A stretch of DNA of 64,000 nucleotides from an uncultured Muribaculaceae bacterium (GCA_964543375.1 CAZIYD010000001.1:6527-70526), one strand, 5' to 3'. Counted from the stretch's first letter, positions 5,241-38,809 are shown. Numbers and translations: made by a program. The notes: generated by a model from the sequence alone, not told the origin.

Positions 5241-5331
5241 TTGTACACCTCCTTCCTCATATGCTTATATAAATTATACATTAGCAATTTTATTTTTTCA
5301 AGTTTTATGTTACTTAGTTTACGCTTTGTTT

Positions 5332-5751: not shown

Positions 5752-5769
5752 TATTAATCACCCTTTCTT

Positions 5770-7457: not shown

Positions 7458-7471
7458 ATAACACCTTCTTT

Positions 7472-8548: not shown

Positions 8549-8574
8549 ATACTCATCCCCTTTTTGCTTTTATT

Positions 8575-9396: not shown

Positions 9397-9475
9397 TTTA
9401 TTCTCCTTCTATGCTATTATGTAATAATAGTATCATAAAATTATAAAAGTTTCTACTAATTTTATTAAAATTTAT

Positions 9476-9513
9476 AAAAAAGAGTTAACTGTTTCTAGTT
9501 AACTCTTAATTTT
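9476..9513. terminator. Bidirectional rho-independent terminator between trmL and the start of the Tad-like gene set
   Basis: Perfect 11-bp inverted repeat aagagttaact-gtttct-agttaactctt, flanked by an A-run and a T-run. Confidence 0.6.
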
Positions 9514-9557
9514 TGATTTATTAAATATTGCTCTTAATGTCATATCGTCTAAATCCA

Positions 9558-10516: not shown

Positions 10517-10548
10517 ACTTACACCTATTGTAATTCTAACATACTTTT

Positions 10549-10585
10549 AATATAAAAAAAAGAACTAATTTTTTAGTTCTTTTTC
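10549..10585 (-). terminator. Rho-independent terminator overlapping the stop of the 10573..11295 gene
   Basis: aagaactaa-tttt-ttagttctt hairpin with flanking A-run and T-run. Confidence 0.5.
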
Positions 10586-11295: not shown

Positions 11296-11377
11296 ATAAT
11301 CCCCCTGAATAAATAATACTGCACTTATTATAAGTATAAAATATAATTTGTCAATATAAAAAAGCAAAAATTGCTTT

Positions 11378-12883
11378 TTATATTTTTTTATCTAAAATTG
11401 TAAGACCGTCTAACTTTGAAAGTTCTTCTTTTGTTTTAGGAGTTATTGTAAAACCTTTACTTCCTAATTCTGCTACTAATATTTCATCATTTTCTTTTCC
11501 TACAACAAAATAGGCATGTCCAACAGAAGCACTATCACTAGGATTAAGTGGTTTTTTAAAAAATATATCTCCAGCACTTACATTAGGAATTTGTTCCTTC
11601 ATGTTGTTGCCTTGTAAGAAAGTTCCACTTAAATTTGTATTATTTTTTAATCTTAAATTTGCATTTTTCTCTCCAGTCACATCATATATTAGCATTTGTA
11701 TCCAACTTGCACTATTTGGAGCATTTTTACCTTGTTTTAAATTTGTATCTAAACCCTCCATATATAAATCATGTCTCCCAGACGAACTAAAAGGGGCTCT
11801 TAAATTATTTTCAAAGTAGAAATTAAGCGCCGAGGTCAATCCGCCCTTTACTCCTCCTGTTCTTTTTCCTTCTTCTATTGCTTCTAAGTATTGACTGTTA
11901 AGTTTTGTTTTTTCTAAATCCGATAATTGTTGATATTCTTTACTACCAACAATTAAAGCACTAGATCCATCATAGTTAGAATAATTAAGATTTGTTGCTA
12001 AACTTTGATTTTCTGCATGAGTTATTTTGGGTGTTGGTTCTATTACCGGAATATTATTTAAAGTTGTAAAACTATCTTTTGAAGTTTCTGTTGGTGATGG
12101 TGTTGGTGCTTGGGTTGGTGCTGGTGTTGGCGCTTGGGTTGGCGCTTGGGTTGGTGCTGGAGTTGGCGCTTGGGTTGGCGCTTGGGTTGGTGCTGGTGTT
12201 GGCGCTTGGGTTGGTGCTGGTGTTGGCGCTTGGGTTGGTGTTGAGGTAACATTTGGTTTAGATGTTTGTTCTGAATTTTTATCATCTAAACTAAGTTTAC
12301 CACCTCTTCCACCATACTCAAAGCCATCACTTGACAGAAAAGTATTATCAGAAATAAATTTACCACCTCTTCCGCCATATTCAAAACCACTACTTGATAG
12401 AAAGGTATTATCAGAAAGTCTAGAAAATGTTATTGATTGTATTTGTGATATTAAAGAGTCTATTTCCGCTACTAAACCATTTAATTTGTTTTTGTTAGAT
12501 TGATCTAAATCATAAGCTTGTTTTTGACGTTTATAAGTTTTTGTTTGTTCTTCTGTTGCACCTTCTCCCATTTTTTTTGGGATACTTAAATTTTTTATAC
12601 TTCCATAAACTTTATTATATTCCTCTATTTTTAATTTCAAATCCTCAATTTTTGATACCATGTTATTTAAATTTGTTTGTTCAGAAGTAATTATACTGAA
12701 TTTATTTTTTAAATCATTTATTTTTTCATCTACTACTTCTTTTACTGAACTTTCCCAATTAACATTAAAATCTAAAAAATTCAAATTTACACTCGATAGA
12801 TTTTTAGCTATATTTGTAAGTGTTTGTAAATTTGAATACTTTATTGCGTCTAAATATTTATCGTATGCTGCTTTATTATCCAT
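11378..12883 (-). CDS. T7SS-associated polymorphic protein, family 1 paralog A (501 aa)
   Basis: N-terminal ~170 aa is about 60% identical to 27793..29214 (..NWESSVKE.., IITSEQTNLNN..). Internal FLSSxGFEYGGRGGK duplicated repeat, (PTQA/PTPA)n linker, and a C-terminus with GDIFF....VGHAYFVVG (NlpC/P60-like His block, no Cys). Confidence 0.55.
   Translation of the reverse strand: MDNKAAYDKYLDAIKYSNLQTLTNIAKNLSSVNLNFLDFNVNWESSVKEVVDEKINDLKNKFSIITSEQTNLNNMVSKIEDLKLKIEEYNKVYGSIKNLSIPKKMGEGATEEQTKTYKRQKQAYDLDQSNKNKLNGLVAEIDSLISQIQSITFSRLSDNTFLSSSGFEYGGRGGKFISDNTFLSSDGFEYGGRGGKLSLDDKNSEQTSKPNVTSTPTQAPTPAPTQAPTPAPTQAPTQAPTPAPTQAPTQAPTPAPTQAPTPSPTETSKDSFTTLNNIPVIEPTPKITHAENQSLATNLNYSNYDGSSALIVGSKEYQQLSDLEKTKLNSQYLEAIEEGKRTGGVKGGLTSALNFYFENNLRAPFSSSGRHDLYMEGLDTNLKQGKNAPNSASWIQMLIYDVTGEKNANLRLKNNTNLSGTFLQGNNMKEQIPNVSAGDIFFKKPLNPSDSASVGHAYFVVGKENDEILVAELGSKGFTITPKTKEELSKLDGLTILDKKI
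12058..12285 (-). repeat. Near-perfect tandem 12/24-nt repeats encoding the (APTQ/APTP)n linker
   Basis: Repeated ggtgctggtgttggcgcttgggtt units visible directly in the sequence. Confidence 0.8.
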
Positions 12884-18005: not shown

Positions 18006-19265
18006 ATGGGACAAATATTAATAAAAAAAGAAAGTTTAGTTACACTAAAGGGTACTTTAGAGACTTTAAAAGGTGAATTTAATACCTCTATAACTGATAT
18101 TAAAACAAATTTATTAAATATTTCTAATAACTGGGAAGGAAAAAAAGCAGATGAAACATTATATGTTATAGAAACTTTAAACAAAACTAATTCTGATTTA
18201 TTAATAAGAATAAATGAAAACATAGAATATATAGAAAGTGTAATATCAACTTTAGATAAAGTTGAAAGTGTTGAGGTGGAAACAAAACCGGTTGAAACCC
18301 CTTTACCAACGGCATCTCCAACCCCCACACCAACTATGGTGCCAACCGCAATTCCAACAGCAAGTCCTAGTGACACAGCAACCATAGATAATATTCCTGT
18401 TATATCTCCAACACAACCACCGCCTTCTTCTATTGATTCAAATCAAAAATTAATTAACAATATAAAAGATTTGGAAACTACGGGTAACTATAGTAGATTA
18501 ATAAATTATCAAGGAGCAAACTGGAACTTTTTTACTATGAAAGATCCCGAATGGGCTAATCTTCCATATAGCAGGGGTAATAGTCACGGGTGGAAGACAA
18601 TTGCAACAAACGGAACACATCCATTTGCCGGTATTAACGCATTAACAAACTCTGGAAATTATTATGTTGGAGATAAGAAAACAGTTATGATGGACATTGC
18701 CGCTGGATTTGGAAACATAAAGGATATAGATCCTACCACCGGAAGAACAAAACTATATACTAACGGTTTTAAGGAAATACAAAATACAGGAGGAAAAACA
18801 GGTGGATTAGGTTCAAATAGAAAATTTCACTCATTAATTAAAGATGCGGGAATTCAAACCTATGATTTAGGTTCAAATATTCAAAATGCGGCCAAAGAAT
18901 TAGAAAGTGGAAATCTAGTTCACTGTATAAGTCAAAACAATAGCAGTATAGCGCCTTCTGGACATTATATGGTAATGACAGGAATTGAAAAAGATAATAA
19001 AGGTAATACAACTGGTTTTTATTTGTTAGATAGCTTATCTCGAACTCAAGAAGACTACAATAATATGAAAAATCAAAATAAATCTCCTATATCTTCAAAT
19101 TGGTTGGGAACAATAGATGTAATTGAACCAGGATTAATAAGAATAGAAAACACCCCCGAAGCATTAGCCGGTGCAAAACTAGCGTCATTTAGATCTGGCG
19201 AAGGATTAAAGAGTAATACAAAAACGATTTTTTCTTATGAAGAATACATATCAAAAAAGAAATAA
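18006..19265 (+). CDS. WXG100-domain fusion protein, family 2 paralog 1 (419 aa): N-terminal WxG helical domain, PT-rich linker, C-terminal Cys/His putative peptidase-like domain
   Basis: NNWEGKKADE WxG motif at aa ~40. Linker PTASPTPTPTMVPTAIPTASP. C-terminal ..LVHCISQN...SGHYMVMTG. Confidence 0.55.
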   Translation: MGQILIKKESLVTLKGTLETLKGEFNTSITDIKTNLLNISNNWEGKKADETLYVIETLNKTNSDLLIRINENIEYIESVISTLDKVESVEVETKPVETPLPTASPTPTPTMVPTAIPTASPSDTATIDNIPVISPTQPPPSSIDSNQKLINNIKDLETTGNYSRLINYQGANWNFFTMKDPEWANLPYSRGNSHGWKTIATNGTHPFAGINALTNSGNYYVGDKKTVMMDIAAGFGNIKDIDPTTGRTKLYTNGFKEIQNTGGKTGGLGSNRKFHSLIKDAGIQTYDLGSNIQNAAKELESGNLVHCISQNNSSIAPSGHYMVMTGIEKDNKGNTTGFYLLDSLSRTQEDYNNMKNQNKSPISSNWLGTIDVIEPGLIRIENTPEALAGAKLASFRSGEGLKSNTKTIFSYEEYISKKK

Positions 19266-19306: not shown

Positions 19307-19380
19307 GCGGATGTAGTTCAATGGTAGAATTTCAGCCTTCCAAGCTGACTACGTGGGTTCGATTCCCATCATCCGCTCCA
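19307..19380 (+). tRNA. tRNA-Gly (anticodon UCC)
   Basis: Cloverleaf: acceptor GCGGATG/CATCCGC, anticodon stem TCAGC/GCTGA, loop CTTCCAA, T-loop TTCGATT, encoded CCA. Confidence 0.9.
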
Positions 19381-19529: not shown

Positions 19530-20696
19530 ATGGGACAAATATTAATAAAAAAAGAAAGTTTAGGTACACTAAAGAGTGATTTAGAGACTTTAAAAGGTGA
19601 ATTTAATACTTCTATAACTGATATTAAAACTAATTTATTAAATATCTCTAATAATTGGAAAGGAAAAAAGGCAGATGAAACATTATCTGTTATAGAAACT
19701 TTAAATAAAACTAATTCTGATTTGTTAATAAGAATAGATGAAAACATAGAATATATACAAGAAGTAATAACAACTATAGATAAAGTTGAAAGTGTTGAAG
19801 TGGAGGTTAAACCAAAACCAACACAAGAACCAAAGATTAATTCCAATGGGTTAGACTCTATTCCATTAGTTAATCCAGTAATTGCCAAACCACTCGTTAA
19901 TGAAAATAGTTCTCAAATAAATCCTTCAAGTTATACAACTAAATATATGGATCACGTAATTGATAATCTTAAAAATGGTATTAGTCCTTTTACAAACGAA
20001 AATATGACTGAATTATCAAAGAATTATAATCAAACAGGAACCATAAGGGATAGAGGCACAGAATTCTTTAAAGAATCAGAACAAGCATTAAAACAGTTAC
20101 AAGATAGATTAAGAAGTGAAAAAGGAAACGACGGCAAACCTCTTTGGGGAACTCCAGCAGCAACAGAAGCAATAGTGCATTTCATGTTAAAAACAGGAAT
20201 TAAAATTCCTTCATATCCTACAAAAAAACAAGATACTGTCGGGAATTATAGATATCTAGGTTTAAATACGGGTTGGTTGGATAACAATAATGGTTTGGAT
20301 TGTAATAATCTTTCTGTTTGGCTTAATATTAACTCGGGAAGAATGCCAGAGGGGAAACACTTTTATGTGCCCAATCCTAATCAAAGTTCAATAAAATTAT
20401 ACCGCCCATCTCAAATAAGTCTACCTACGGGCGGAGAAGCAGGAGATCTAGTATCAAGAGAAAATCATGTTGGAACATACGTATTTGAAGATGAAGAATA
20501 CGTATATGTTATTGAGGCAGCAAATATAAGACAAAATGCTACTCCAGGAAGTCTTATTACTATGCTTCCTAAAGATGGTAAAAGTAGAGGATTGGGACCA
20601 AATTATGTGTTATATCCTAAAGCACACTTTAATTTTATTGTAAAAGAAGACGATATTTTTCTTGTAAATAATCCAGCATCTATACCAAGACCATAA
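19530..20696 (+). CDS. WXG100-domain fusion protein, family 2 paralog 2 (388 aa), with an NlpC/P60-like C-terminal domain
   Basis: N-terminal 95 aa ~90% identical to 18006..19265 (NNWKGKKADE). C-terminal GLDCNN...(55 aa)...GDLVSRENHVGTYV matches the NlpC/P60 Cys...His spacing and motifs. Confidence 0.55.
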   Translation: MGQILIKKESLGTLKSDLETLKGEFNTSITDIKTNLLNISNNWKGKKADETLSVIETLNKTNSDLLIRIDENIEYIQEVITTIDKVESVEVEVKPKPTQEPKINSNGLDSIPLVNPVIAKPLVNENSSQINPSSYTTKYMDHVIDNLKNGISPFTNENMTELSKNYNQTGTIRDRGTEFFKESEQALKQLQDRLRSEKGNDGKPLWGTPAATEAIVHFMLKTGIKIPSYPTKKQDTVGNYRYLGLNTGWLDNNNGLDCNNLSVWLNINSGRMPEGKHFYVPNPNQSSIKLYRPSQISLPTGGEAGDLVSRENHVGTYVFEDEEYVYVIEAANIRQNATPGSLITMLPKDGKSRGLGPNYVLYPKAHFNFIVKEDDIFLVNNPASIPRP

Positions 20697-25273: not shown

Positions 25274-26206
25274 CTAATCTTCTAAAAGATCTCTCCAATT
25301 GTCTACAAAGCCAATTCTATGTAATATTTTTGAAAGTGGAATAGATGATACCTTTCCATCTAATAAGTCTATCTCATAACCAAGCTCATATAACAATAAT
25401 CTAAATTCTTCTTCAGTAAGTAAATGTTTCATTACTATAATTATAGAGAAAAAATCGTTTTTTCCATATACATACTTATCATCAACTTTAGGAATGTTTA
25501 AAAATTCATGATACTTTGTATCTGGAATATCCCTTTGTGTCTTGTGATCGTATAATATATCCTCATGAGCACATAAATTTCTATAATTTGCGGTTACTGA
25601 TAGAAAAATATCCAAAACATCAGGTTTTATTCCATAGTAATTTGCAATTTCAGTCTTATCCTCATCTTTTAATATAGAAAAAAGTTCACTTATTATACCA
25701 AAAGATAAAACTTTAACCAGTATCCACATCGGTATATAGCCATAGTTGGTTATATAGTGTAAGGTAGCACTGTGTTGCTTACTATTAATTTTTATTTGTC
25801 TTTTCATTTTTCCAAGAACATCGTTAACCCTTTTTGATTTTAATGAATCTCTATTGAAATTAGTAAATCTTAAGTAGTCTTTCTCTTTTATCCCATATTT
25901 TTTAGACAATATATAACTCATTACTGACTTTATATTGTTTTCTACTATAAGAATGTTCTTAAACATTATATTTCTAATATTCCTATCAAATAAGAAAAAT
26001 CCATATAGTTCTTCAAAAGTTGTTCCATCTATAAAAGTTCTATCTTCTTGAGATTTAAAAAAAATATATCTATAACCATTTATAAAAAAATAGTTTTCTC
26101 TAAATAGTATCTTTTTTACTTTTTCTTCGTTTGATATAATTAAACCCTTGCTCTTTAGTATATCTATTTGTTGTTCTAAAGTCTTAAATTCTTTTTTAAA
26201 TGCCAT
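25274..26206 (-). CDS. Abi_2 (AbiD/AbiF-like) abortive-infection family protein
   Basis: 310 aa with the ..TANYRNLCAHEDILYD.. block typical of Abi_2. Basic, AT-rich ORF. Confidence 0.5.
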   Translation of the reverse strand: MAFKKEFKTLEQQIDILKSKGLIISNEEKVKKILFRENYFFINGYRYIFFKSQEDRTFIDGTTFEELYGFFLFDRNIRNIMFKNILIVENNIKSVMSYILSKKYGIKEKDYLRFTNFNRDSLKSKRVNDVLGKMKRQIKINSKQHSATLHYITNYGYIPMWILVKVLSFGIISELFSILKDEDKTEIANYYGIKPDVLDIFLSVTANYRNLCAHEDILYDHKTQRDIPDTKYHEFLNIPKVDDKYVYGKNDFFSIIIVMKHLLTEEEFRLLLYELGYEIDLLDGKVSSIPLSKILHRIGFVDNWRDLLED

Positions 26207-27316: not shown

Positions 27317-27757
27317 CTATTTTGGTTGCGCTATCTCATCGTTAGATTTAAATGCATTCAAGCTTGAAAAGTCTATTATGTCAACTTCATCATCAAGTTT
27401 TTCTTTATTGAGTACTACATGTTCTCCAAAATCTAAGGTCTCTGCAGGCTTATTTTCTAATACGACTTCGAAGTTTTCTGTTGCTTGAATAGCCTGAGTT
27501 AAGTCTATAGGTTCTTTAACAACACCTTCTATTGGTTCTACTGTAATTGTGTTTGCGTTTGTCTCAATAGGAGCAACTACAAAATTATCATAATTATTAT
27601 TCGTTATTTCTTCTGATTCTGTTTTTTTAGCATCTTCTTTTTTTGTTTTGTTTTTTCCATTTTTTGAAAGAAAACCAATTAAGACTACTATAAAGAAACC
27701 AGAAATTCCGGCTACATATAAATAATTATCTACTAAAAAATCTAAAATTTTTGTCAT
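27317..27757 (-). CDS. Membrane-anchored acidic hypothetical protein (146 aa)
   Basis: N-terminal transmembrane segment (YVAGISGFFIVVLIGFL), then an acidic Glu/Asp-rich region. Last gene of the T7SS-like gene block. Confidence 0.4.
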   Translation of the reverse strand: MTKILDFLVDNYLYVAGISGFFIVVLIGFLSKNGKNKTKKEDAKKTESEEITNNNYDNFVVAPIETNANTITVEPIEGVVKEPIDLTQAIQATENFEVVLENKPAETLDFGEHVVLNKEKLDDEVDIIDFSSLNAFKSNDEIAQPK

Positions 27758-27792: not shown

Positions 27793-29214
27793 CTACTGTT
27801 TTGGATCTAATTCCACTCTGTATGTTCCTGATTCTCCTTCTGGTAAGTAAAGATTGTATACTTCATATCCGTTAGGACCATTAAAACTCGATAATGTATA
27901 TCCCATTAAGTTACCGTCGCTACTCTTTATTTCTGTTAAATTTGTTCCAACTACAGGAAATGCACCCGGGGTTTCTTTTGCGTGTATTGCTTGTGCAAAC
28001 AGAGAATATGCAACGGTTTCTCTAGACTCTTTAGAAGGTTCAGTAAAGACCTCCGATCCTTCAAATATACCAACTTGTTGCGGATTCAAAGCATAAGGAT
28101 TCAAAAGGTTGTTATTAATACTTAAATCCAGCCCATCTATTTCTGAATTTATTTTTTCTATTGTTGCTATTGTTTCAGCATCATATTTTGCGCCTATTGT
28201 TTCTGCTGTATTTTCATAATCAATATAAGATTGTGTTTGTTTAGCAATTTCATCCAAATCTGTAGTTGATCTAGTTCCGGGTTGAACAGTAGGTGGTTTT
28301 TTTGCATTAAGTTCTTGCAATTTTCTATATGCAATTAACCTTAGTTCGCCATCCATATTATTGGAATCGTTATTATTACCATTATGATTAGAGCCTTTGT
28401 ATATATCATAAAGTTTTTGATATTGGTCTACTTGCTCTAAGTTTGAGGCTTGCATTTGATAAAGACCACCTTCTTTAGTAAGCGCTATTTGTGCCAGGTT
28501 TTTTGCAAGGTCGCTATCTGAGTTTTCTATTATTGACTTTGATATTTCAATGCTTGATTCAGTGTGTTGATTACTCATTTCAAGAATTGTTAATTTATTA
28601 CTTATAGGTTTTTCTAAATTGTTGCTCCAATAAGAATTGTAGGCGTTTACATCTTTTAAAGCTAAAATTTCTTCTGCTTTAATATGTGCATTTTCATTAT
28701 TAGAAGAAGTTGAAATTGTGTCAGGTGAGGTTTCTCCAGAAGTAGTTGCCGTAGAACCAAAATTAATAGATTTTATAAAACTAATTAGTACTTCTATTTC
28801 TGAAACCAAATTATTTAATTCTGTTTTATATTGCTCGTTCTTATTATATTCTCTTACTTTATTATTATATTCAACTTTTTGTTCTTCTGTTGCGTTCTTT
28901 TGAAGCACCGGGCGAGATAAATTTCTTATATTTGAATAGACTTTATTATATGATTCTATCTTGGTCTTTAGTTCTTTCGACTTTGATACAATATTATTTA
29001 AATTAGTTTGTTCTGAAGTTATTATTGAAATTTTAATTTTTAAATCATTGATTTTTGAATCAACCGCCTCTTTTACAGAACTATCCCAATTTGCACTAAC
29101 ATCCAAATTTTGCAAATTTACACTTGATAAATTTGCAGCAAGTGTTGTAAGTAGTGTTAAATCCGATGCAATTATCGCTTCTAAATATTTATCATATATT
29201 ATCTTTTTATCCAT
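27793..29214 (-). CDS. T7SS-associated polymorphic protein, family 1 paralog B (473 aa)
   Basis: N-terminal ~170 aa homologous to 11378..12883 (NWDSSVKE, IITSEQTNLNN). Divergent C-terminus. Confidence 0.55.
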   Translation of the reverse strand: MDKKIIYDKYLEAIIASDLTLLTTLAANLSSVNLQNLDVSANWDSSVKEAVDSKINDLKIKISIITSEQTNLNNIVSKSKELKTKIESYNKVYSNIRNLSRPVLQKNATEEQKVEYNNKVREYNKNEQYKTELNNLVSEIEVLISFIKSINFGSTATTSGETSPDTISTSSNNENAHIKAEEILALKDVNAYNSYWSNNLEKPISNKLTILEMSNQHTESSIEISKSIIENSDSDLAKNLAQIALTKEGGLYQMQASNLEQVDQYQKLYDIYKGSNHNGNNNDSNNMDGELRLIAYRKLQELNAKKPPTVQPGTRSTTDLDEIAKQTQSYIDYENTAETIGAKYDAETIATIEKINSEIDGLDLSINNNLLNPYALNPQQVGIFEGSEVFTEPSKESRETVAYSLFAQAIHAKETPGAFPVVGTNLTEIKSSDGNLMGYTLSSFNGPNGYEVYNLYLPEGESGTYRVELDPKQ

Positions 29215-29222: not shown

Positions 29223-29531
29223 CTAAAAATCTATACTTCTTATAATTGTTTCTCCGCTGTCTTCGTTATTTTTATATATTTGCATTGAGGTTTCAATAAG
29301 CTCTGATAAGGTCAAAAGTTCTATCGCTCCGTTTTCAAGATCTTTCGCAAGATTAAATGATGAATCTTTATATAAATCATAAGAATTACTTATAGAATCC
29401 TTCCAGTCTTCACCAAGACCGGTAACTAAACTTTCCAAATTCCCCTTTTTCTCCTTAATCTTTGTAATATTTTCATTTATCACTTTTAATGCGTTTTCAA
29501 TCTCAACAAAGTTAACTATAACTGGTTTCAT
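29223..29531 (-). CDS. Small alpha-helical protein (102 aa); candidate WXG100-like/Lap-like partner of the upstream large protein
   Basis: ..LVTGLGEDWKDSISNSYDL.. hairpin-like W motif. ATGA overlap with the 1231-aa gene stop. Confidence 0.35.
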   Translation of the reverse strand: MKPVIVNFVEIENALKVINENITKIKEKKGNLESLVTGLGEDWKDSISNSYDLYKDSSFNLAKDLENGAIELLTLSELIETSMQIYKNNEDSGETIIRSIDF

Positions 29532-32500
29532 TACAACACCTCTTCTTTATTTGATAAATATAAAGTAATTAGCAACATTATTAATATTTTTAATAATAGC
29601 ATCCATGTGTTTTTCAAGTTATTGCTTTCATTTAAATAATCTTCCATAGATTTTTGTACTGGGCGTTTTAAATGAGAGTCAATATACTCAAAAATTTCTT
29701 TTAAATTTGTATTTTGTTTTATCAAATTTAACTCTTTTATAATTTTTGAATATGATTCATCTTCTAAGTTAATTAGAACTTCCAATGTATAAAGAATGTT
29801 TTTCTCTTTTATTATACTTTCGACAATAAAATTAGTTCCTTTTAAAGAAAGTAACTCTTCTATATTTAAATTATTTTTGCTTGCAAGTTCGGTTAATTTG
29901 CTATTTATTTCAAAAGATATAGAAGACTGACTTAAAAGATTGTTATAAAGCAATGATACGAGATTTGAATTTTCAAAGTTAATAGTTATAAAGTTTGAAA
30001 ATTCTTTACTATCTAAATAATCATCTGTAGATAAGTTTGTATCTCTTCCCAATATTGAAATATATTTTATGATTTTGCTTTTTAATTCTGGAATGAAGTT
30101 TTGAGAAAATCTCGATCTAATTTCGGCAATTATGTTTTGATTATTGTTTTGTAAATTAATAGAAGAAATATTATTTTGTGAGTTTTGTTTTGTTACTTTC
30201 TCATCTTCTCCTTCGCCTTTAAAATTTAAATAGATTATGTTTCCTATTAAACTATCTAAAAGTTTTCTTAATGTTTTTATACTGTTAATGTCTAATAACG
30301 AATTTAAACCCATTTTCATTTTATCTGCAGATGATGATAAATAATCTTTTAATAGATTAATTGTTATCTTATCAATTCCAAAAACACTTGGATCTTCAGT
30401 AAATAACAATTTATTTATCTCATCATTTAAAGAATCATCATCTTTTTTACTTAAAGCATATATTTTTATTACAGATGTTTTTAAATTGGTTAATGACTCT
30501 TTTATTAAATTTGTATAACTCGGAGTGGTAAGCAGTGCATCTATTGTTGTGTTTTCTGATTTTGCTAAATATGTTAGATGTTTGAATAAGAACAACAAAA
30601 ATTTATTATTTTCTTCTTTGTTTAATTTATATAAATATTGTTGTAATTTAGAAGAATCAAAATTGAGTAATAATATTAAAAGAATTACTATATTAGGGAC
30701 TTTCTCTACCAAAACATCTAAAACATCTTCTCTACTACCATTAAACAAGTCTTCTTTGTTTATATTATATCTTTTAAGAATTTTGTCAATTGCCTTATAT
30801 ATTTGATCTTCTGTTGAATTAAATAAAAGTTCTAAATACCCAGAAGTCTCAATAATCATATTGTTGTTCAAGTTTTCATTACCATAATTTGATTTATCAT
30901 CATTCAACATTTCTATTAAATTTGCAAATCCCAAAGAATAGCTGTTATTTCCATCTCCAAAATTAATAATTGAAAATATTTTCAATTTACTTTCATTATT
31001 AGAATTTGCCTCTAAATAAGAACTTAAGTTTAGTTTTTCGTTTTTTGAATTTGTCTCTAAATAAGACTTTAGTAGATTTAAATATTCTTCTGGAATTATT
31101 ATGGTTTTATTCAAAATGTTGTTTATAAAGGTAACAAAACCACCACTATATTTTATGTCCTCTTCAAATTTTTGATAAGACCTTGATAAATCAATCATTG
31201 AACTTTTTACCCATACAACATAATTTGTATTTGCTAAAAGATTTTCTATCTCTAGATTTTGTTTTTTACCAGTTTCTACTAAGGAATTAAATATTACCTT
31301 TAAAACCATAGAGTTTTTGCTCCATATGTGCTCATATTTTAAACTATAAATTTCATATAAATAAGATTGTAATACCTCATCCTTAATTGTTGAAAAAATA
31401 TTTAATACTAGTTGTAAGCTGTCTAATTTACTTAAATACATAGTAAGAACTTCGAAATTAGCACCACTTAATAAATCTTCTTCTGTTAAACTGTTTGATA
31501 TTGCAAAGTTAGAAAAATCTTCATTTACTATTATTTTAGTTATTTTAGGTTCAGTATCATAATATATTTCTTCTCTATCATTTTCTTTTTCTTTTTTGTT
31601 TTTTAAAGCACTATATAGAGGAACAATTCCAATACCTGCGATTGGCAATAAAGCAAGCCAACCTAAAGAATTATTGTTTTTTACAGTTTCCTTTATTTGT
31701 GGAGCATACTTACTATCTTGTAGTATCTCTTTTACTGTATCATCTACTATTATTGGTTTTTCTTCCACATTGTTGTCTTCTAAGTTTTCTTCTGTGGGGA
31801 TTTCTATTTCTTCTACTATTGGTTTTTCTAAAGGTTTTATTTCGTTCTTAGAATTATCAAATAAAGATGGTGTTCTTATTATCTCTTTATTTATTACAAT
31901 TGTTTTTATTATTTCTTTTATAACTGGTTTTTCAATTATTGTCGGATGTTTATTTTCTACGATTTCCTCTATATAGTCTTGAAGAGCTTCATCGTCCATG
32001 TTTTTTACTATTTCTACAACTTTACTGTCTTCTGTATTCTCTATTATATCAGTTAAAGTATCGTTTTCTTTTCCGGACAAAATATCTTCTACTGTAGTTC
32101 CTTTATCATCTAGTATTGGTTGGACCTCTTTTATTATTTCTGCAAAGGGAATATCTGTATCCTCCCCGTATAAAATTTTATTTACAAAACTCTCTAAAGC
32201 CTTTTTTGACAATTCTGCATATTTTTCATCAGTTAACATTTCTTTTAAACTTAAATTGTTTTCTTGAGAAACAACCTTTAAATAGTCTGATAACATTTCT
32301 TTAGTAACTGGATCTATATCTTTTTGTGGTTTATTTGTTCCATAAATAATGTTGTTTAGTTCAGTTTGAATATCTTTATCGTTTGTTAATGATAAATCAT
32401 TTAATATAATTAAAGAATCTTTATGTTTTATTAGAGAATCTTTTATTTCAATCGCATAGTTAGTGTCTGTTAAAAGCGCACTAAACGGTATTCCCTTGCT

Positions 32501-33226
32501 ACTGGCTAAATATTTCAAAAACAACTCAGCGTTAGGATATAGTGGCGGCTTTGCGACATAACTAGATAACTCTCTTAAATAACCTTGAAGCACGATTGCT
32601 TCCATTTGAGTAATCGTTGAAATAAGAACACTTAAATTTGGAGATTGGGCAATAATATCTGTCATTGTAGGATTAAATTTACCAGATAATAGATCTGGTA
32701 AAGTAATACCAAATTTACTTAATATGTTTTGTAAAACAACATTTAATTCCGGCAAAGTCGTATATATTGGTAATTTTCCATATCCAGATTCTAAAATTAT
32801 GTATGCCGGAATTCTAATTTGCGTTATTGTTGCTCCTCCAGTTTCACCATTTACAGAAACATTTCCTGAATTGGTAATAATTATGTTTTCTGGGGTATAA
32901 CTTGTTTTCTCTGGGTTTTTATCAAGTTGTACAGTTTCTTCGCTTGCATCTTGAATTCTAACATAACCTTCTATATCTGATAAATTAGTATGGTACTTCA
33001 TTATTCCGTCGGATAAATTATTCATAAAAGTTTTTATTTTTTCAAAATAATTAGAATAATCAGAAAAATAATTAGGAACCAGACCACTATTTATCAAACT
33101 TGAAAATGAAGAGGTCAAATTTCCATTATTATTTAAATCAGAATTAAAACTTTCAGCCTTAGTTTTTAGTCCTCCTGCATAACTTTCCACACTAGCAAAA
33201 TCAACTGTTATTTTATCTTTAGCCAT
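29531..33226 (-). CDS. Large (1231 aa) protein with an LXG-like N-terminal domain, a central transmembrane segment and a C-terminal transmembrane anchor; candidate T7SS substrate or structural protein
   Basis: N-terminal MAKDKITVDFASVESYAGGLKTKAESF...SSFSSLINSG... resembles LXG-domain N-termini. Transmembrane segments at ~aa 523-545 (LGWLALLPIAGIGIVPLYSAL) and aa ~1205-1225. Confidence 0.45.
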   Translation of the reverse strand: MAKDKITVDFASVESYAGGLKTKAESFNSDLNNNGNLTSSFSSLINSGLVPNYFSDYSNYFEKIKTFMNNLSDGIMKYHTNLSDIEGYVRIQDASEETVQLDKNPEKTSYTPENIIITNSGNVSVNGETGGATITQIRIPAYIILESGYGKLPIYTTLPELNVVLQNILSKFGITLPDLLSGKFNPTMTDIIAQSPNLSVLISTITQMEAIVLQGYLRELSSYVAKPPLYPNAELFLKYLASSKGIPFSALLTDTNYAIEIKDSLIKHKDSLIILNDLSLTNDKDIQTELNNIIYGTNKPQKDIDPVTKEMLSDYLKVVSQENNLSLKEMLTDEKYAELSKKALESFVNKILYGEDTDIPFAEIIKEVQPILDDKGTTVEDILSGKENDTLTDIIENTEDSKVVEIVKNMDDEALQDYIEEIVENKHPTIIEKPVIKEIIKTIVINKEIIRTPSLFDNSKNEIKPLEKPIVEEIEIPTEENLEDNNVEEKPIIVDDTVKEILQDSKYAPQIKETVKNNNSLGWLALLPIAGIGIVPLYSALKNKKEKENDREEIYYDTEPKITKIIVNEDFSNFAISNSLTEEDLLSGANFEVLTMYLSKLDSLQLVLNIFSTIKDEVLQSYLYEIYSLKYEHIWSKNSMVLKVIFNSLVETGKKQNLEIENLLANTNYVVWVKSSMIDLSRSYQKFEEDIKYSGGFVTFINNILNKTIIIPEEYLNLLKSYLETNSKNEKLNLSSYLEANSNNESKLKIFSIINFGDGNNSYSLGFANLIEMLNDDKSNYGNENLNNNMIIETSGYLELLFNSTEDQIYKAIDKILKRYNINKEDLFNGSREDVLDVLVEKVPNIVILLILLLNFDSSKLQQYLYKLNKEENNKFLLFLFKHLTYLAKSENTTIDALLTTPSYTNLIKESLTNLKTSVIKIYALSKKDDDSLNDEINKLLFTEDPSVFGIDKITINLLKDYLSSSADKMKMGLNSLLDINSIKTLRKLLDSLIGNIIYLNFKGEGEDEKVTKQNSQNNISSINLQNNNQNIIAEIRSRFSQNFIPELKSKIIKYISILGRDTNLSTDDYLDSKEFSNFITINFENSNLVSLLYNNLLSQSSISFEINSKLTELASKNNLNIEELLSLKGTNFIVESIIKEKNILYTLEVLINLEDESYSKIIKELNLIKQNTNLKEIFEYIDSHLKRPVQKSMEDYLNESNNLKNTWMLLLKILIMLLITLYLSNKEEVL

Positions 33227-33249
33227 TATATCACCCTTTCATAAAAACC

Positions 33250-33303
33250 ATTTCTAATTAAACAATGTTTTGTTTAATTAGAAATAGTCTCTATATAGAG
33301 ACT
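33250..33303 (-). terminator. Strong hairpin/attenuator between the esx-like genes and the downstream large gene
   Basis: Perfect 16-bp inverted repeat atttctaattaaacaa-tgtt-ttgtttaattagaaat, then the palindrome agtctctatatagagact, then a minus-strand U-run. Confidence 0.5.
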
Positions 33304-33307
33304 TATT

Positions 33308-33625
33308 TTAACTAATTCCTGTATCTGCTTTGAAGTATGCTTCTGCAACGCTATCTATATAATTTTTGTATGAATCTATAGCAGCAATTACCTTTGTTTT
33401 GCTTTCTTGCATAACCTCTGTACTTTTTTGTCTTATATTGTTAGCACTAGTACTAACAACACCTGTTGTTTGTTCTATATTTGAACTCATTCTTTCCATA
33501 GCTGTTTTTAACTCTGATTGTAATGAGTCAACTTTAGAAACTGACTGTTTTATTAACTCTGGATTAACTTCAATTTTTAAAGAAGCACCTCCACCATCAG
33601 ACATTGCAGTTGGTCTATTATCCAT
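33308..33625 (-). CDS. WXG100-like small helical protein (105 aa), no canonical WxG
   Basis: Size, helical low-complexity composition and position next to the esxA-like gene and essC. Confidence 0.4.
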   Translation of the reverse strand: MDNRPTAMSDGGGASLKIEVNPELIKQSVSKVDSLQSELKTAMERMSSNIEQTTGVVSTSANNIRQKSTEVMQESKTKVIAAIDSYKNYIDSVAEAYFKADTGIS

Positions 33626-33644: not shown

Positions 33645-33935
33645 TTAATATGGAACATTTCTTGCATTTGTAGAACTTGCTTGCATTATGTTTTGTGATG
33701 CAGTTGCAAAAGCATTTTTTGTTTCAACTTTAATTTCTTCTGTTTTTGCAAGCATTTCTGAAGCTTTAGCTTTTAATGACTCTGATAAGCCTTTTGCTTC
33801 TGGTGCATTCAACCCGTTTTGAATCATGTTATTCGTTTCTGTTTCAATTTCAGAAACAATACGCGCTATGTTTTTTTGATCGTTTTCTATTTGAGTCATT
33901 TCACTATCAAATTTTGCTGTGTCTAAACTTAACAT
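33645..33935 (-). CDS. EsxA/WXG100-like small secreted helical protein (96 aa), WxG not conserved
   Basis: ~100 aa helix-turn-helix-like composition immediately downstream of esaB. RBS AGGAG. Confidence 0.45.
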   Translation of the reverse strand: MLSLDTAKFDSEMTQIENDQKNIARIVSEIETETNNMIQNGLNAPEAKGLSESLKAKASEMLAKTEEIKVETKNAFATASQNIMQASSTNARNVPY

Positions 33936-33953: not shown

Positions 33954-34202
33954 CTATATTAAAATTATCTCAGAACCATTTCTAATGTTTGATTCTTTTA
34001 ACGTGATGTTTAAATCATACATGTTGCCCGTTTCTCTATCATATAGGAGAGAGTCTTTTATGGGAAACGAACCATCAGATAGTTCATTTATTGATTTGGT
34101 TAATAACTTTGAAATTACACCTATTTTTTTACTTATTGGTAGAAACATTTCATATCTCTCGCCAATCTGTGGCACGAATAATATTATATAAACTTTGTTC
34201 AT
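33954..34202 (-). CDS. esaB: EsaB/YukD-like ubiquitin-fold T7SS protein
   Basis: 82 aa with the beta-grasp pattern (YIILFVP.IGERYEMFLP...SGSFPIKDSLLYD...). 4-nt overlap with essC. Confidence 0.6.
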   Translation of the reverse strand: MNKVYIILFVPQIGERYEMFLPISKKIGVISKLLTKSINELSDGSFPIKDSLLYDRETGNMYDLNITLKESNIRNGSEIILI

Positions 34203-37200
34203 AATATTTCTACCTCACTATCGTCATCATCTATTAGTTTTACAAGAGTTGGAATGCCTCTTTTGACATTGTATCCAAAACCACTTCCAATATCTTGGTA
34301 TAACTCTTTTCCGACTTTGACTAATTTTAAAGTAAATTGATCTGCAATTCCATTACCCAACCAAATTCCTTGGTTAGCATTAACTATACTCCTATACCAA
34401 TTATCGTATTCTAATTTTTTGAATTTGTCAACGTTATCTACAAAAATATACATTTGTTTTTGCATCTCTTGTGACTTTTCAAAAAATTTGTCTAACTCTT
34501 TTTGATTATCATCAGATAATCTATTTTTAAATTTTTCTATCCCTATTATTATTATAAGTTTGTTTTTATAATCTTTAAGTGCATTTTTACTATAGTTGCT
34601 TGATAAATAGGTCTCATATTGTTCGTTTACATCTTTACTTATATCCATAAAGAATTGATTAGAGTCAGCATTATAATACTTTATTTCAGATTTTTCATTT
34701 ATTTCAACGATGTCTTCGTTGTCTAATATAATCAGATCAGCATCTTTATTCTTTTTAAGTGCATATATTAAAGTATTTATAAAATTATGTGATGCTGAGA
34801 AATCTTGAGAAACTATCAATGTAGTTAGATTCTGTTTGAAATTATATGTTGAAATATCCAAACTTTCTTTTTCCACTCCTATTGGAACAGAGTTTAAATC
34901 CTCTAAATTGCTTCCAACCAAATTTAAAGTTACCCTTTCTGGTAAGATCATAACTTTTTTAGCAGAAATTTTATATTTTTCTTTTAACTCTCTGCTTATT
35001 TGTAATATGTGTTTGTTTATATCTTCTTCATCTATTATATATGAGGTTTGAAATTCATGTAATCCATTGACTTCTACTAAACCTCTTCCATATACTTTGG
35101 ATGGCAATTTGTCTTTTACCCTATCAAATATATTTGAATAATCATTATCATCGTTAAGTTGTAAAGAAACTTTTTGTCTAAAGTTTTTAGCAAGTTTATA
35201 TCTTATTGAGTTGGCAGTATTAACACTAAATATAAAAACAATACCATATTTTAATCCCTCTCTTGTAAGCTGTAATATTTCTTCTTCAAAGTTGGGATAT
35301 GTTTCTTGAAATACCTCAAAGTTGTTTATAATAACAATAATTGTAGGTATTATTTTACCACTATTTTTTATATAATATTGATAATCGCCATAGTAGTCAA
35401 CAAATAATCTTTTTCTATTATTTATTTCCTTTCTAATCATCTTAAATATATTATTAACTTTTTCTGTATCTTCTGCAAAAAGTATATCTCCAACTTGGGG
35501 GGCTTCAGAAAAAACTCTAAGAGATTCTGTACCAAAATCTAATATATATATATTAACTTCATCTACAGAGTGATTTGTAATTGTAGAGTATATTAAACTG
35601 TTTAATAACAACTCTTTCCCACTATCTGCAGAACCATATATTATGGCATTTCCCTCGTTAGATAAAGGGAGTGTCAACAATCCTTGTGCTTGATTAAATG
35701 GGTCATCATATTCTCCAATTATAGGATTAATTACACCATGCTCTGCTTTATAATTATATTTTTTCACAAGTTTATCTATAAAGATTTTATCCGCAATTCT
35801 ATCTAACCAAAGTTGTCTAACATTTATGCTTTCTTTTTTAGCTAAAGCAGATAAATATTTTACTATAGAAGATATTTGTTCACCTTCAGATAAAGTTTGA
35901 TTATTTCTTGGTTCTTCCACTTCTTTAATTATGGTTCCTGTATTATTTATAAAATCTATTGATGTATCCACTTCTTTTTTTATTTTATCCGATGGTATAT
36001 ATGCTGCCCCAGTCCAAGCTGATTGACCCAAAGAAAAATATTCATTATATCCAACTTGAAGATAATACCTTCCAACATGCTTTAAACTCGCAGCTTCTGG
36101 AGACTTTATTACATCCATACTATCTGATTTTTCTTGTACTTTTAAACATATTTCAAATCTACTATTACTCCAGATTTGATCGTTTACTATACCAGATGGT
36201 TTTTGAGTGGAAAGTATTAAGTGCACTCCCAAACTACGTCCAATACGTGCAGTACTTATAAGTTGATCCATAAATTCAGATTGTTGGGTTTTTAACTCTG
36301 CAAATTCATCAGATATAATAAGTAAATGAGGCATAGGTTCCTTTACTAATCCCTCATGATAAAGTTTTTGATATTTATATATATCAATTGTACTTTCATT
36401 TAACTCTTCTCTAACATCATTAAACATCCTTTGTCTTCTTTTTAATTCACTTTGTATAGATAATAAAGATCTATTCATTTCAACTGTATCTAAGTTTGTT
36501 ATTGAACCCGCCAGATGAGGTAGTTTTATACCAAGTTCGTTATTTTGTAGTGCTCCAACTAAAAAACCACCTTTATAGTCTATTAAGACAAACGAAACAT
36601 CATCCGGATGATAATTAACCGCTAGAGATAATATATATGAAAGTATTAATTCACTTTTTCCAGAACCTGTCATACCTGCTATTAAACCGTGAGGTCCGTG
36701 CGCTTTTTCGTGAATATCTAATACAGATATCATTCCATGACTATCTATTCCTATTGGTGTCTGAAGAGAAACTATTGAATCATTGGTCTTCCACCTATAT
36801 AAAGCATTTAGTTGTTCAACTTTTCCAACAGAAAACATTTCTAAAAAAGTATACGTTTTAGGTAAGGCATACATTTCTTTAGATAATTTTAATGGTGTAT
36901 TTGCAATAACTTTAAAACTTTGTTTCAAATTGTTTAAAGGTGCTTTATCTAAGAAGAATTCCTTTTGTTTTGTAGAAACAAGTTCACTTTCAAACACTCC
37001 ACCTTTATTACTATCTATACTTATAAATGTTGTTGTTTCGTTAGGTAAATTTGATAGCGTTTCATTAATTACTATTACACTGTAACCAATATTAATTTTT
37101 TGCTTTAATACCTTGGAGAAAAGTTGAATATTTTTTGATATCTTATAATTATTTGTAATTAAAACATAATATGGATAAAAAGATTTATAATCTTTATTCC

Positions 37201-38809
37201 CACTGTTCTCACTTTCCAAACGTTCTTGTAGTTCTTGTTCCAAATATGTAGAAAGTTCTTTCATTTCTTCATAACCTGTTGCAAAATATCTAATTGACTT
37301 ATCATCTGACCAAACGTGTGGCAAAACCTTTAGATATTCAAAATCAGATTCATAATCTGGATCCATAAAGAAAACCAATTTTAAATCTTCATAACTATGA
37401 AAAGTAACCATTTGTAAAATTATTTCTTTTAAAAATTCATTTGTTATTTGTCTTTTCCCAACTATTGCTGAATAATTCTTTTCTACAAAAGATATACTTA
37501 TTGGAACATCTTTTATTTCTTTAGATACATTTACTACCCTGTTTAATTCGTCTTTTAAGTTGTCTTCATCCATAGAAAAATGTGTTTCCGGGTATTTTAT
37601 ATCTATTTCAAGAGGAACGTTCCCTATCCCTAAACGTATAGATAGAAAATCTGGTTGTTCTATCTTTCTTTCCCATAATTGTCTGTTTTTATTCAAAATT
37701 ATTGTTTCACATGCTGGCGCTGGTAAATAGTTTTCAATTAAAATTTGCTTTTGTTTTTTTGATATTAATTCTAATTGATCCCTTCTCGAATCAATATATC
37801 CACCATATTTTTTTTGACGTTCTCTTTCGTATTCTACTTTTTTCTTTTTTTGATAATTTTTGTTTAATAGGGGCCACAATATCATGCTTAACATCATCGC
37901 AAAACCCACTATTAAAGATGGTAATACCGTTTTAAACTCAGCCTCTCCAGATAAATATCTATTTAGTGATGTGAACACAGTCATTAATGACATCATACTC
38001 ATTGTAAGCATAGGTCCAATTATATACATTAAAGGCATCTCTTCTGTTGACTGCTTTGATGGTGGAGAATCTATTATTAAAACTTCTTTTTCTATTAAAG
38101 TTTTAAATCTTGGAGATCTTGAAAAATAGTCTTCTTCTCTATATAGTTCTATACTTTCATCTTCTTCAATATAAGAATCAAAAACCTTAGGAGATTGTTT
38201 TGAAATGTTGAATAAATCTTGATTGTAAGAAACCGCGTTAAAGGGATTATTTATTAATAAACAATTTCCAATTATAATTATTTTTAAACCCATTATAAAA
38301 ATAACATCCCCATTTAATAGTTCTTGTTCTTTTATTGCCACTCCATTAATATATGTCCCAAATTTACTATCTAAATCTTTAACAACCCACTTATTATTTA
38401 AAAATAAAAGTTTAGTGTTTTTTTTACCAACAACTTGCAAATTATAAACAATTTCATTTGAGGGGCCACTACCAATATTTATCTCATTTAAATTTTTAAA
38501 ATCTAATTTTATAGTACTTTTGTCATATATAGGAGAAGAATATAAAATATATACTTCTTTTTCTTTAGTTTGTATATAGTAAAAACTGTATTCTGTTAAT
38601 ATTGCAGAATCAACTACAGTTCCATTGCTCTCTATTATTTTATTCTCTTCGTTACTTATTATTTTCCAATTTCCAGATTCTTCTATTACGTTAATTAAGT
38701 TGGTATCTTTTTTATAATTATTTTTGTCTACAATCCAATAACTACCAAAAACGTTTGATGGTAATTTTATAGTATCAATTTTATCCTTTTTTATTAATAA
38801 TAGTTGCAA
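34199..38809 (-). CDS. essC: T7SS ATPase EssC/YukB (FtsK/SpoIIIE family)
   Basis: 1536 aa. Two N-terminal FHA-like domains, two transmembrane helices, and three P-loop domains: D1 Walker A GMTGSGKSE; D2 and D3 degenerate (GSADSGKE; a degenerate Walker A-like block). Confidence 0.85.
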   Translation of the reverse strand: MQLLLIKKDKIDTIKLPSNVFGSYWIVDKNNYKKDTNLINVIEESGNWKIISNEENKIIESNGTVVDSAILTEYSFYYIQTKEKEVYILYSSPIYDKSTIKLDFKNLNEINIGSGPSNEIVYNLQVVGKKNTKLLFLNNKWVVKDLDSKFGTYINGVAIKEQELLNGDVIFIMGLKIIIIGNCLLINNPFNAVSYNQDLFNISKQSPKVFDSYIEEDESIELYREEDYFSRSPRFKTLIEKEVLIIDSPPSKQSTEEMPLMYIIGPMLTMSMMSLMTVFTSLNRYLSGEAEFKTVLPSLIVGFAMMLSMILWPLLNKNYQKKKKVEYERERQKKYGGYIDSRRDQLELISKKQKQILIENYLPAPACETIILNKNRQLWERKIEQPDFLSIRLGIGNVPLEIDIKYPETHFSMDEDNLKDELNRVVNVSKEIKDVPISISFVEKNYSAIVGKRQITNEFLKEIILQMVTFHSYEDLKLVFFMDPDYESDFEYLKVLPHVWSDDKSIRYFATGYEEMKELSTYLEQELQERLESENSGNKDYKSFYPYYVLITNNYKISKNIQLFSKVLKQKINIGYSVIVINETLSNLPNETTTFISIDSNKGGVFESELVSTKQKEFFLDKAPLNNLKQSFKVIANTPLKLSKEMYALPKTYTFLEMFSVGKVEQLNALYRWKTNDSIVSLQTPIGIDSHGMISVLDIHEKAHGPHGLIAGMTGSGKSELILSYILSLAVNYHPDDVSFVLIDYKGGFLVGALQNNELGIKLPHLAGSITNLDTVEMNRSLLSIQSELKRRQRMFNDVREELNESTIDIYKYQKLYHEGLVKEPMPHLLIISDEFAELKTQQSEFMDQLISTARIGRSLGVHLILSTQKPSGIVNDQIWSNSRFEICLKVQEKSDSMDVIKSPEAASLKHVGRYYLQVGYNEYFSLGQSAWTGAAYIPSDKIKKEVDTSIDFINNTGTIIKEVEEPRNNQTLSEGEQISSIVKYLSALAKKESINVRQLWLDRIADKIFIDKLVKKYNYKAEHGVINPIIGEYDDPFNQAQGLLTLPLSNEGNAIIYGSADSGKELLLNSLIYSTITNHSVDEVNIYILDFGTESLRVFSEAPQVGDILFAEDTEKVNNIFKMIRKEINNRKRLFVDYYGDYQYYIKNSGKIIPTIIVIINNFEVFQETYPNFEEEILQLTREGLKYGIVFIFSVNTANSIRYKLAKNFRQKVSLQLNDDNDYSNIFDRVKDKLPSKVYGRGLVEVNGLHEFQTSYIIDEEDINKHILQISRELKEKYKISAKKVMILPERVTLNLVGSNLEDLNSVPIGVEKESLDISTYNFKQNLTTLIVSQDFSASHNFINTLIYALKKNKDADLIILDNEDIVEINEKSEIKYYNADSNQFFMDISKDVNEQYETYLSSNYSKNALKDYKNKLIIIIGIEKFKNRLSDDNQKELDKFFEKSQEMQKQMYIFVDNVDKFKKLEYDNWYRSIVNANQGIWLGNGIADQFTLKLVKVGKELYQDIGSGFGYNVKRGIPTLVKLIDDDDSEVEIL

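Follow-up and report, generated by a model that had tools for sequence, protein, structure and literature searches.

Type VII secretion (T7SS) in Firmicutes is known almost wholly from the T7SSb subtype, which depends on EsaA, EssA and EssB. The LXG effectors of T7SSb, such as TelA-C and YxiD, have WXG100-like targeting partners called Lap (PMC11217815), and TspA of S. aureus is a T7SS substrate that depolarises membranes (PMC7456083). Garrett, Higginson and Palmer (2024) defined the further subtypes c-j, including the 'simple' subtype T7SSg with two WXG100 proteins, TsgB, TsgC and TsgL; Tad genes adjoin T7SSg and T7SSh (PMC11217815). Here we analysed 64,000 nucleotides (nt) of DNA, hereinafter the window, assigned to an uncultured Muribaculaceae bacterium (GCA_964543375.1, CAZIYD010000001.1:6527-70526). 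The window encodes a membrane-anchored protein of 1231 amino acids (aa), designated BIG, whose gene is real and lies inside a conserved module with the ATPase EssC. The composition of this T7SS cluster is previously undescribed and includes a new accessory or substrate family, the R family. R proteins consist of a WXG100-type hairpin, a linker and tandem all-alpha modules, and they head T7SS effector cassettes in compact loci with EssC and a YukD-like protein, in uncultured Firmicutes of low GC content. From its sequence and gene context, we tentatively read BIG as a giant R family member that serves as a membrane-tethered T7SS substrate or adaptor and is not a toxin, with a rough probability of 0.45.

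The BIG gene is located at 29531..33226 on the minus strand, which carries most genes of the window (GC content ~28%). It starts with an ATG codon, 5 nt downstream of a Shine-Dalgarno-like GAAAGGGTG. A search of a word-indexed database of 5.8 billion proteins returned only six clusters of orthologues (P0001-P0006, 50-100% identity), all of them metagenomic and none annotated. The reading frame is unbroken in every orthologue (50-76% identity). Because it extends over 1231 codons in DNA of 28% GC and is intact throughout, BIG is not a chance open reading frame (ORF). This ORF and the 102-aa ORF that follows it (29223..29531, minus strand) are both confirmed as given in a preliminary description of the window. 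The tight coupling between the two also stands, but the motif is not the ATGA described earlier. Specifically, the junction (...GTG TTG TAA TG AAA...) reads TAATG with a 1-nt overlap, in which the last base of the BIG TAA is the first base of the 102-aa start codon. The next gene, encoding a 473-aa protein, starts 8 nt after the end of the 102-aa ORF.

BIG is encoded by the fifth of eight genes in the module, which specify EssC and proteins of 82, 96, 105, ~1230, 102, ~475 and ~145 aa. The gene order is identical in every orthologous locus, and the more distant locus L010 has the same layout. The ribosomal protein genes rplM and rpsI lie downstream of the module, also on every orthologue contig, while smpB and RNase R lie beyond EssC. 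EssC (34199..38809, minus strand, 1536 aa) has an FHA domain and matches TIGR03928 (T7_EssCb_Firm) with an E value of 1.6e-299 and 996.7 bits against a cut-off of 778.4, as well as the Pfam models FtsK_SpoIIIE and FHA.

An exhaustive HMMER search with a profile of BIG residues 1-1200 against 1.84 billion representatives found 46 proteins, again all metagenomic and unannotated; the relatives found in a search with one of them, P0027, are also all unannotated metagenomic proteins. About 35 of the 46 are soluble proteins of 350-650 aa, in which an N-terminal hairpin is joined through a linker rich in Gly and Pro to two to four helical modules with the signature '..YL..IAKENxITxEELL.D..Y..LLK..L'. 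We define the R family as proteins with the hairpin and at least two copies of the pattern '..YL..[IV]A..N.[IV][TS]...L[LF]....Y...[LIV]K..L', encoded beside WXG-like genes. BIG has the hairpin, the modules and WXG-like gene neighbours. Among its more distant relatives, P0017 (1662 aa) and P0018 (1376 aa) have both a central and a C-terminal membrane segment, whereas P0023 (992 aa) has the C-terminal one alone. The genes for all three occupy the position of BIG in the same type of module. In one orthologue, P0004 (L008 1702-5892, 1396 aa), the last ~217 residues are duplicated, including a second C-terminal membrane segment. Its cluster mates P0014 and P0015 have 1180 aa without the duplicated segment; the extra copy stems either from recent tandem duplication or from the assembly.

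The contexts of four loci define R proteins as heads of effector cassettes. L011 encodes EssC, an 86-aa protein, a soluble R protein (522 aa), WXG proteins of 95 and 105 aa, a 624-aa protein that is helical at its N-terminus and rich in Gly and Ala at its C-terminus, DUF4176, and further WXG proteins. L013, on a 7-kb contig without EssC, encodes two WXG proteins, an R protein of 1150 aa, two more WXG proteins, and proteins of 321 and 155 aa. L014 (5177-13490) and L015 (554-8869) each contain two tandem cassettes, in which an R protein (366 or 361 aa) precedes a WXG-like protein of 125 or 120 aa, a WXG-like protein of 105 aa and an effector-like, Thr/Glu-rich protein of 595 or 505 aa; no EssC was found near these cassettes in the 16-kb stretch examined. 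The first cassette of L014 and L015 is followed by two small proteins, which are candidate immunity proteins.

Type VI secretion systems have effector cassettes headed by VgrG or adaptor proteins, with a family member at the head of each cassette. R proteins may likewise be cassette-specific carriers, here of a minimal, EssC-only T7SS. The analogy is one of organisation only, with no relationship in secretion system, fold or sequence. Applied to BIG, such a scheme would have the protein exported hairpin-first through EssC and arrested by a stop-transfer segment, displaying a bound 473-aa effector. We consider this form of the carrier scheme improbable.

The N-terminus of BIG was described earlier as LXG-like. 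Full-length BIG has no match to the LXG model PF04740 at E<=1 in Pfam and none in NCBIfam, and PF04740 gives no match at E<=1 with the N-termini of 24 family members (first 105 residues of each); nor was an LXG match obtained among PDB sequences. DUF3130 and DUF3958, the other models proposed for this region, have no match at E<=1 in BIG or in the 102-aa protein (Pfam, NCBIfam). Judged by the condition that the preliminary description itself named, no LXG hit, the LXG label is refuted. The corresponding explanation, that BIG is a canonical polymorphic LXG toxin, is refuted at profile level and is hardly tenable: the EssC-adjacent location and the helical N-terminus speak for it and nothing else does, while the helical targeting region measures ~90 aa instead of ~200, the candidate 'LxG' position varies among orthologues (LINSG, LIGSG, LEPN, LIDVG), and a toxin domain and a variable C-terminus are absent. 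The idea beneath the label holds for the most part, namely a ~90-aa helix-turn-helix, EssC directly upstream, two real membrane segments and a 102-aa protein that is WXG100-like and co-varies with the hairpin as would be expected of a Lap-like partner.

The N-terminal helix-turn-helix (aa 1-90; 32957..33226, minus strand) is modelled by AlphaFold2 with low per-residue confidence (pLDDT) as helices at aa 10-33, 37-46 and 52-84. The hairpin stops at about aa 88, ends with an invariant IEGY followed by acidic residues, and gives way to a variable, unstructured linker. Its turn reads SGLVPNYF, with no Trp and no W-x-G. The helix-turn-helix pattern is retained in the 24 family N-termini. We compared profiles with hhalign, using alignments built from the loci and, as controls, four helical regions of the same protein. 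The hairpin aligns end to end with the 105-aa WXG-like family (probability 83%, E 9e-6) and with the WXG100 proteins of the cassettes (77%, E 2e-5), several of which match PF06013, while the helical controls reach at most 4%. Searches of the hairpin with PF06013, TIGR03930 and PDB profiles gave nothing significant, and the sole related hint among the 24 N-termini was a YwqH-like match in two members (E 0.03-0.08). These comparisons lend moderate support to a WXG100-superfamily-like N-terminus that lacks the W-x-G motif. In size, helix-turn-helix form and colinear alignment with WXG-like proteins of the same locus, the hairpin resembles EsxA and EsxB, and its proposed pairing would be similar too. 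In contrast to EsxA and EsxB, it has no W-x-G, is insignificant against Pfam and NCBIfam models, and is fused to more than 1100 residues.

The rest of BIG is built from repeated helical modules. Comparison of sliding sub-alignments with the whole BIG alignment by hhalign revealed that aa 143-353 are homologous to aa 791-1000 (probability 97%, E 1e-10 to 1e-11 per 100-residue window), and that a unit of ~60 aa recurs at aa 158-220, 359-433, 567-637 and 808-868; a BLASTP self-comparison of BIG did not detect the repeats. The modules thus fall into an N-terminal set (aa 143-433; 31928..32800, minus strand) with the pattern '..YL..VA.EN.ISL..LL.D..YA.L.K..L', which bears the internal duplication, and a homologous set C-terminal of the central membrane segment (aa 567-1000; 30227..31528, minus strand). 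The N-terminal-side module is the one common to the ~35 soluble proteins. AlphaFold2 models of the two halves of BIG, made from six-sequence alignments, are all-alpha and partly confident (pLDDT 57 and 59.5), with good confidence only at aa 200-350 (pLDDT 80-91) and in parts of the C-terminal half (70-92). A search with the module profile against the 5.8-billion-protein index returned nothing. A resemblance of the module to acyl carrier protein (ACP) was dropped, the phosphopantetheine serine being absent.

The central and C-terminal hydrophobic helices of the preliminary description were confirmed with slightly different borders. By Kyte-Doolittle hydropathy, the first transmembrane segment (TM1) covers aa 520-541 (31604..31669, minus strand), an uncharged stretch of 22 residues, SLGWLALLPIAGIGIVPLYSAL, within which lies WLALLPIAGIGIVPLYSAL. 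The second (TM2) covers aa 1207-1225 (29552..29608, minus strand), TWMLLLKILIMLLITLYLS, with one internal Lys, the invariant K1213; the KEEVL tail behind TM2 is conserved. Both are modelled as helices by AlphaFold2, and both are among the best-conserved parts of BIG across the six orthologue clusters and two more distant relatives. The best-conserved block of all (aa 489-545; 31592..31762, minus strand) consists of a juxtamembrane half-module, TM1 and the Lys-rich flank KNKKEK, with 30 invariant positions in 57 residues; its W..L.P.AG.G..PL pattern is retained in P0017 and P0018. A C-terminal membrane segment is also present in P0017, P0018, P0019 and P0023. BIG has no N-terminal hydrophobic segment. 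A third hydropathy peak, at aa 835-853, holds D, E and K and corresponds in the alignment to a buried helix of the repeated module; it was therefore rejected as a membrane segment. 'LPIAG' inside TM1 was rejected as a sortase or CTERM-type sorting signal, as it lies mid-protein within the hydrophobic stretch and is not conserved as LPxTG.

Two hydrophobic segments, together with a T7SS-type hairpin, a coupled small helical partner, a small membrane protein encoded downstream (146 aa) and the precedent of TspA for membrane-active T7SS substrates (PMC7456083), could point to a membrane-inserting or pore-forming toxin of the TspA or TelE kind, in which the 102-aa protein would act as Lap and the 146-aa protein as immunity factor. 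We think such a toxin very unlikely, and of the options raised in the preliminary description, the pore-forming toxin with an immunity partner proved the least supported. The conservation of BIG is even (49-79% identity in the hairpin, 52-78% in the rest), with no polymorphic C-terminus, and searches of Pfam, NCBIfam, PDB profiles and Foldseek gave no toxin domain. The two segments are neither glycine zippers nor amphipathic hairpins; flanked by Lys-rich stretches and, in the case of TM2, by the KEEVL tail, they have the look of classical single-pass anchors. More than 1000 residues of BIG are repeated, scaffold-like modules, and the putative immunity protein is single-pass and separated from BIG by two genes. 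TspA and BIG are alike in their link to the T7SS, their helical N-termini and their membrane-active or hydrophobic parts, but the polymorphic toxic C-terminus and polytopic immunity proteins of TspA are found with BIG in neither case.

The 102-aa protein is the putative partner of the hairpin. It is related to the cassette WXG proteins by hhalign (probability 90%) and reaches E 0.066 with Pfam WXG100. A W-x-D lies at its centre, and S-[IV]-x-F is conserved in its C-terminal region. We compared pairwise identity matrices over seven loci by partial Mantel analysis. The hairpin (aa 1-90) co-varies with the 102-aa protein with r 0.96. The partial correlation is 0.81 (p 0.002) when conditioned on the YukD-like protein, 0.86 when conditioned on the remainder of BIG and 0.89 when conditioned on the 105-aa protein. 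Hairpin and N-terminus of the 473-aa protein co-vary with r 0.97. The pair of 96- and 105-aa proteins co-varies with itself (partial r 0.94, p 0.0004), and with the hairpin the partial r is ~0.3 and not significant; ~100 bp separate the hairpin-coding DNA from the genes of this pair, as against 3.6 kb for the 102-aa gene. The pattern is suggestive of one complex of hairpin, 102-aa protein and effector N-terminus, as would be expected if the three were in contact.

On the reading of BIG as tethered substrate or adaptor, the hairpin would find a cytoplasmic partner in the 102-aa protein, whose translation is coupled to that of BIG, and probably a second one in the helical N-terminal domain of the 473-aa protein. 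Together they would form a composite signal in the shape of a helical bundle, like the LXG-Lap and EsxA-EsxB complexes, and the conserved C-terminal tail of the 102-aa protein would dock this signal on EssC. The arrangement recalls LXG effectors and Lap in having a helical N-terminal targeting region on a large protein, adjoining genes for WXG100-like partners, the vicinity of EssC, and co-variation of the putative partner with the targeting region. It differs from them in that BIG has no PF04740 match, a targeting region of ~90 aa, a payload of helical scaffold and two membrane segments in place of a toxin, and a conserved rather than polymorphic sequence; the partner gene lies downstream and has no match to DUF3130 or DUF3958.

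The remaining proteins of the module are encoded on the minus strand as well. The 82-aa protein (33954..34202) is YukD/EsaB-like by position, size and its C-terminal NGSEIILI only; it has no match among Pfam, NCBIfam or PDB profiles and is 79-95% identical across loci. Two WXG100-like proteins follow, one of 96 aa (33645..33935) and one of 105 aa (33308..33625) with a C-terminal YFKAD, the latter matching WXG100 (E 0.0017) and ESAT6_2 (E 5.7e-6), both under the curated cut-offs. The region between the 105-aa gene and BIG (33227-33307) contains two perfect palindromes, AGTCTCTATATAGAGACT and TTTCTAATTAAACAA-AACA-TTGTTTAATTAGAAA, of which AGTCTCTATATAGAGACT (33303-33286) is weakly terminator-like. 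The palindromes may attenuate transcription past the WXG pair or act as an operator; terminator and promoter scans of the region showed no excess over shuffled expectation. Downstream of BIG, the 473-aa effector-like protein (27793..29214) holds the position of the 321-624-aa proteins in R cassettes elsewhere. Its helical N-terminal domain of ~160 aa carries W-[DES]-[DS]-S-V, its middle is variable and its C-terminal domain is conserved; Pfam gives no match. The 146-aa single-pass protein (27317..27757) has an N-terminal membrane segment strongly conserved as DFL[VI]xNYxxVAGIS..., beyond which come a Lys-rich flank, an acidic middle part of variable sequence and a C-terminus that is again conserved. 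In a motif scan of all loci, this protein occurs only where the R protein has membrane segments (L003, L005-L008, L010) and is absent from L011-L015, whose R proteins are soluble.

The main rival explanation starts from what the module lacks. Models of EsaA, EssA and EssB (TIGR03929, TIGR03927, TIGR03926 and Pfam) match nothing in the module, among the scanned ORFs of the window or among the neighbours in any related locus. BIG could be a core membrane subunit that replaces EsaA, EssB and EssA in a new T7SS subtype. In such a model, the N-terminal 520 aa would be cytoplasmic and docked on EssC or WXG proteins, aa 546-1206 would form an extracellular, envelope-spanning helical domain anchored at both ends by membrane segments in the manner of EsaA, and the 146-aa protein would be an EssA- or TsdH-like partner. 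In favour of the model, every locus of the lineage has one copy of BIG at a constant position, the most conserved parts of BIG are the juxtamembrane block with TM1 and TM2 with the invariant Lys, and the 146-aa protein accompanies solely those R proteins that bear membrane segments. A large repeat protein with a C-terminal transmembrane segment, TsdI, has been proposed to span the envelope in T7SSd, e and j (PMC11217815). BIG resembles EsaA/YueB and TsdI/TseI/TsjI (PMC11217815) in being very large, fast-evolving, repeat- or stalk-like, membrane-anchored and encoded in a T7SS cluster, and P0023 mirrors the TsdI layout of N-terminal export signal, passenger and single C-terminal membrane segment.

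Despite these points, we judge a core subunit somewhat unlikely. In L011, EssC and a YukD-like protein are accompanied by a soluble R protein but by no partner with a membrane segment, so a membrane-anchored R protein is not generally required. R homologues are duplicated, head single cassettes and occur away from EssC, which is the behaviour of accessory or substrate genes, and P0023 lacks the central segment. BIG also evolves much faster than EssC and the YukD-like protein: between the window and L003, the most distant orthologous locus, identity is 52% for BIG but 81% and 80%, respectively, for the other two. As to the known envelope proteins, BIG shows no sequence similarity to TIGR03929 and related models. 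Unlike TsdI it lacks a Sec signal peptide and Ig-like domains and is all-alpha with a WXG-type hairpin, the C-terminal membrane segment being all they have in common. The soluble homologues of BIG are cassette-associated.

The charges around TM1 bear on the same question. In all eight proteins with the segment, two or three K/R residues fall within the 15 residues before TM1 and four to six after it, a balance that leans towards an external N-terminal half and against the cytoplasmic N-terminus of the core-subunit model. Acidic residues, too, are common there, and TM2 gives no indication of orientation. The BIG clade contains a single Cys in ~11,500 residues (nine proteins), compared with 0.66% in other ORFs of the window, and Cys is likewise absent from the 473-aa and 146-aa proteins and from every small WXG-like protein of the locus. 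Weakly, the depletion in the BIG clade fits extracytoplasmic exposure. For the tethered substrate or adaptor, we propose that an R protein of the BIG lineage gained its two membrane segments through internal module duplication and that, by virtue of these segments, BIG would remain tethered in the membrane of the producer. The N-terminal half might then be exported, retained by TM1 and displayed on the surface; alternatively, BIG might be a membrane-bound platform on the cytoplasmic face that brings the 102-aa/473-aa effector pair to EssC.

Several observations weigh against the tethered substrate or adaptor. We know of no T7SS precedent for export of a 520-residue N-terminal domain combined with lateral release of a membrane segment. 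Any topology with two membrane segments sits uneasily with the presence of the same module to either side of TM1. The pLDDT of the hairpin is only 36-53, and the hhalign probability is only 50% with the BIG clade alone. Models of LXG, WXG100, T7SS_signal and Lap are without significance on BIG and on the 24 family N-termini. PDB profile searches with both halves, the hairpin and the 82-aa family gave chance-level matches only (ACP E 0.12, syntaxin 9e-4, HP0062 0.3), and Foldseek searches of PDB with the BIG models gave no significant match. The co-variation is drawn from short sequences in seven loci, where co-evolution and a shared recombination history are inseparable. Finally, soluble R proteins show no Cys depletion, and the Cys argument is weak because EssC itself is Cys-poor.

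Among described subtypes, T7SSg is similar to this locus in being a minimal cluster with EssC, a ubiquitin-like protein and two WXG proteins and without EsaA, EssA and EssB, and the window, too, contains Tad-type pilus genes; for the ubiquitin-like role, the 82-aa protein was assigned by position and size only. In contrast to T7SSg, EssC here is recognised by the T7SSb equivalog model and carries an FHA domain, and there is no DUF5050 propeller. The R, 102-aa, 473-aa and 146-aa proteins occur in none of the described subtypes c-j (PMC11217815), and no subtype beyond T7SSa-j is named in the later literature searched. The Tad/Flp-type pilus or conjugation-like gene set of the window spans ~1200-11400 on the minus strand and includes a TadA/VirB11-like ATPase (7472-8548), RcpC/CpaB (8575-9396) and a TrbL_4-like membrane protein (1209-3110).

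WXG fusions clearer than BIG are encoded in the same window by two paralogous genes on the plus strand, 18006-19265 (419 aa) and 19530-20696 (388 aa), which flank a tRNA-Gly gene (19307-19380). Their products share a near-identical hairpin of ~95 aa with a W-E-G or W-K-G motif and a Pro/Thr-rich linker but differ in their C-terminal domains, that of 18006-19265 being a Peptidase_C39_2 domain (E 2.4e-5) and that of 19530-20696 having none in Pfam. The two look like polymorphic WXG-fused effectors of the same T7SS, and by their predicted architecture the design of WXG hairpin, linker and payload is reused in this genome. L003 encodes a 300-aa protein with WXG and Peptidase_C39_2 regions just upstream of EssC. 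The window also has an Abi_2 (abortive-infection-like) gene, situated between rpsI and htrA (25274-26206, minus strand); its position is the same in four related loci (L005-L008). The metagenome-assembled genome of L004/L003 (CAYXGK010000007.1, GCA_964464565.1) is labelled uncultured Muribaculaceae, an implausible label for an EssC-encoding contig of 26-28% GC. Its contig has 26.5% GC and encodes Tex, an FtsX-type ABC transporter and an EssC of the Firmicute type, so that wrong binning or a wrong label is probable.

The locus and its relatives present an EssC and YukD-like core without EsaA, EssA and EssB in uncultured gut bacteria, together with a new, unannotated family that heads cassettes, and this set of components fits no published subtype from T7SSa to T7SSj. 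Because every R family member is metagenomic, heterologous reconstitution is needed. The R version with a hairpin and anchors offers a test case for composite helical signals that recruit large cargo to EssC. It is equally a test case for the handling of membrane proteins by the T7SS and for substitutes of envelope-spanning parts in minimal systems. If the hairpin-first carrier scheme were true, it would be the first T7SS-dependent route of membrane-protein biogenesis or surface display, and the 473-aa effector, non-covalently bound, would be placed on the surface for contact-dependent action, a VgrG-like logic in a T7SS.

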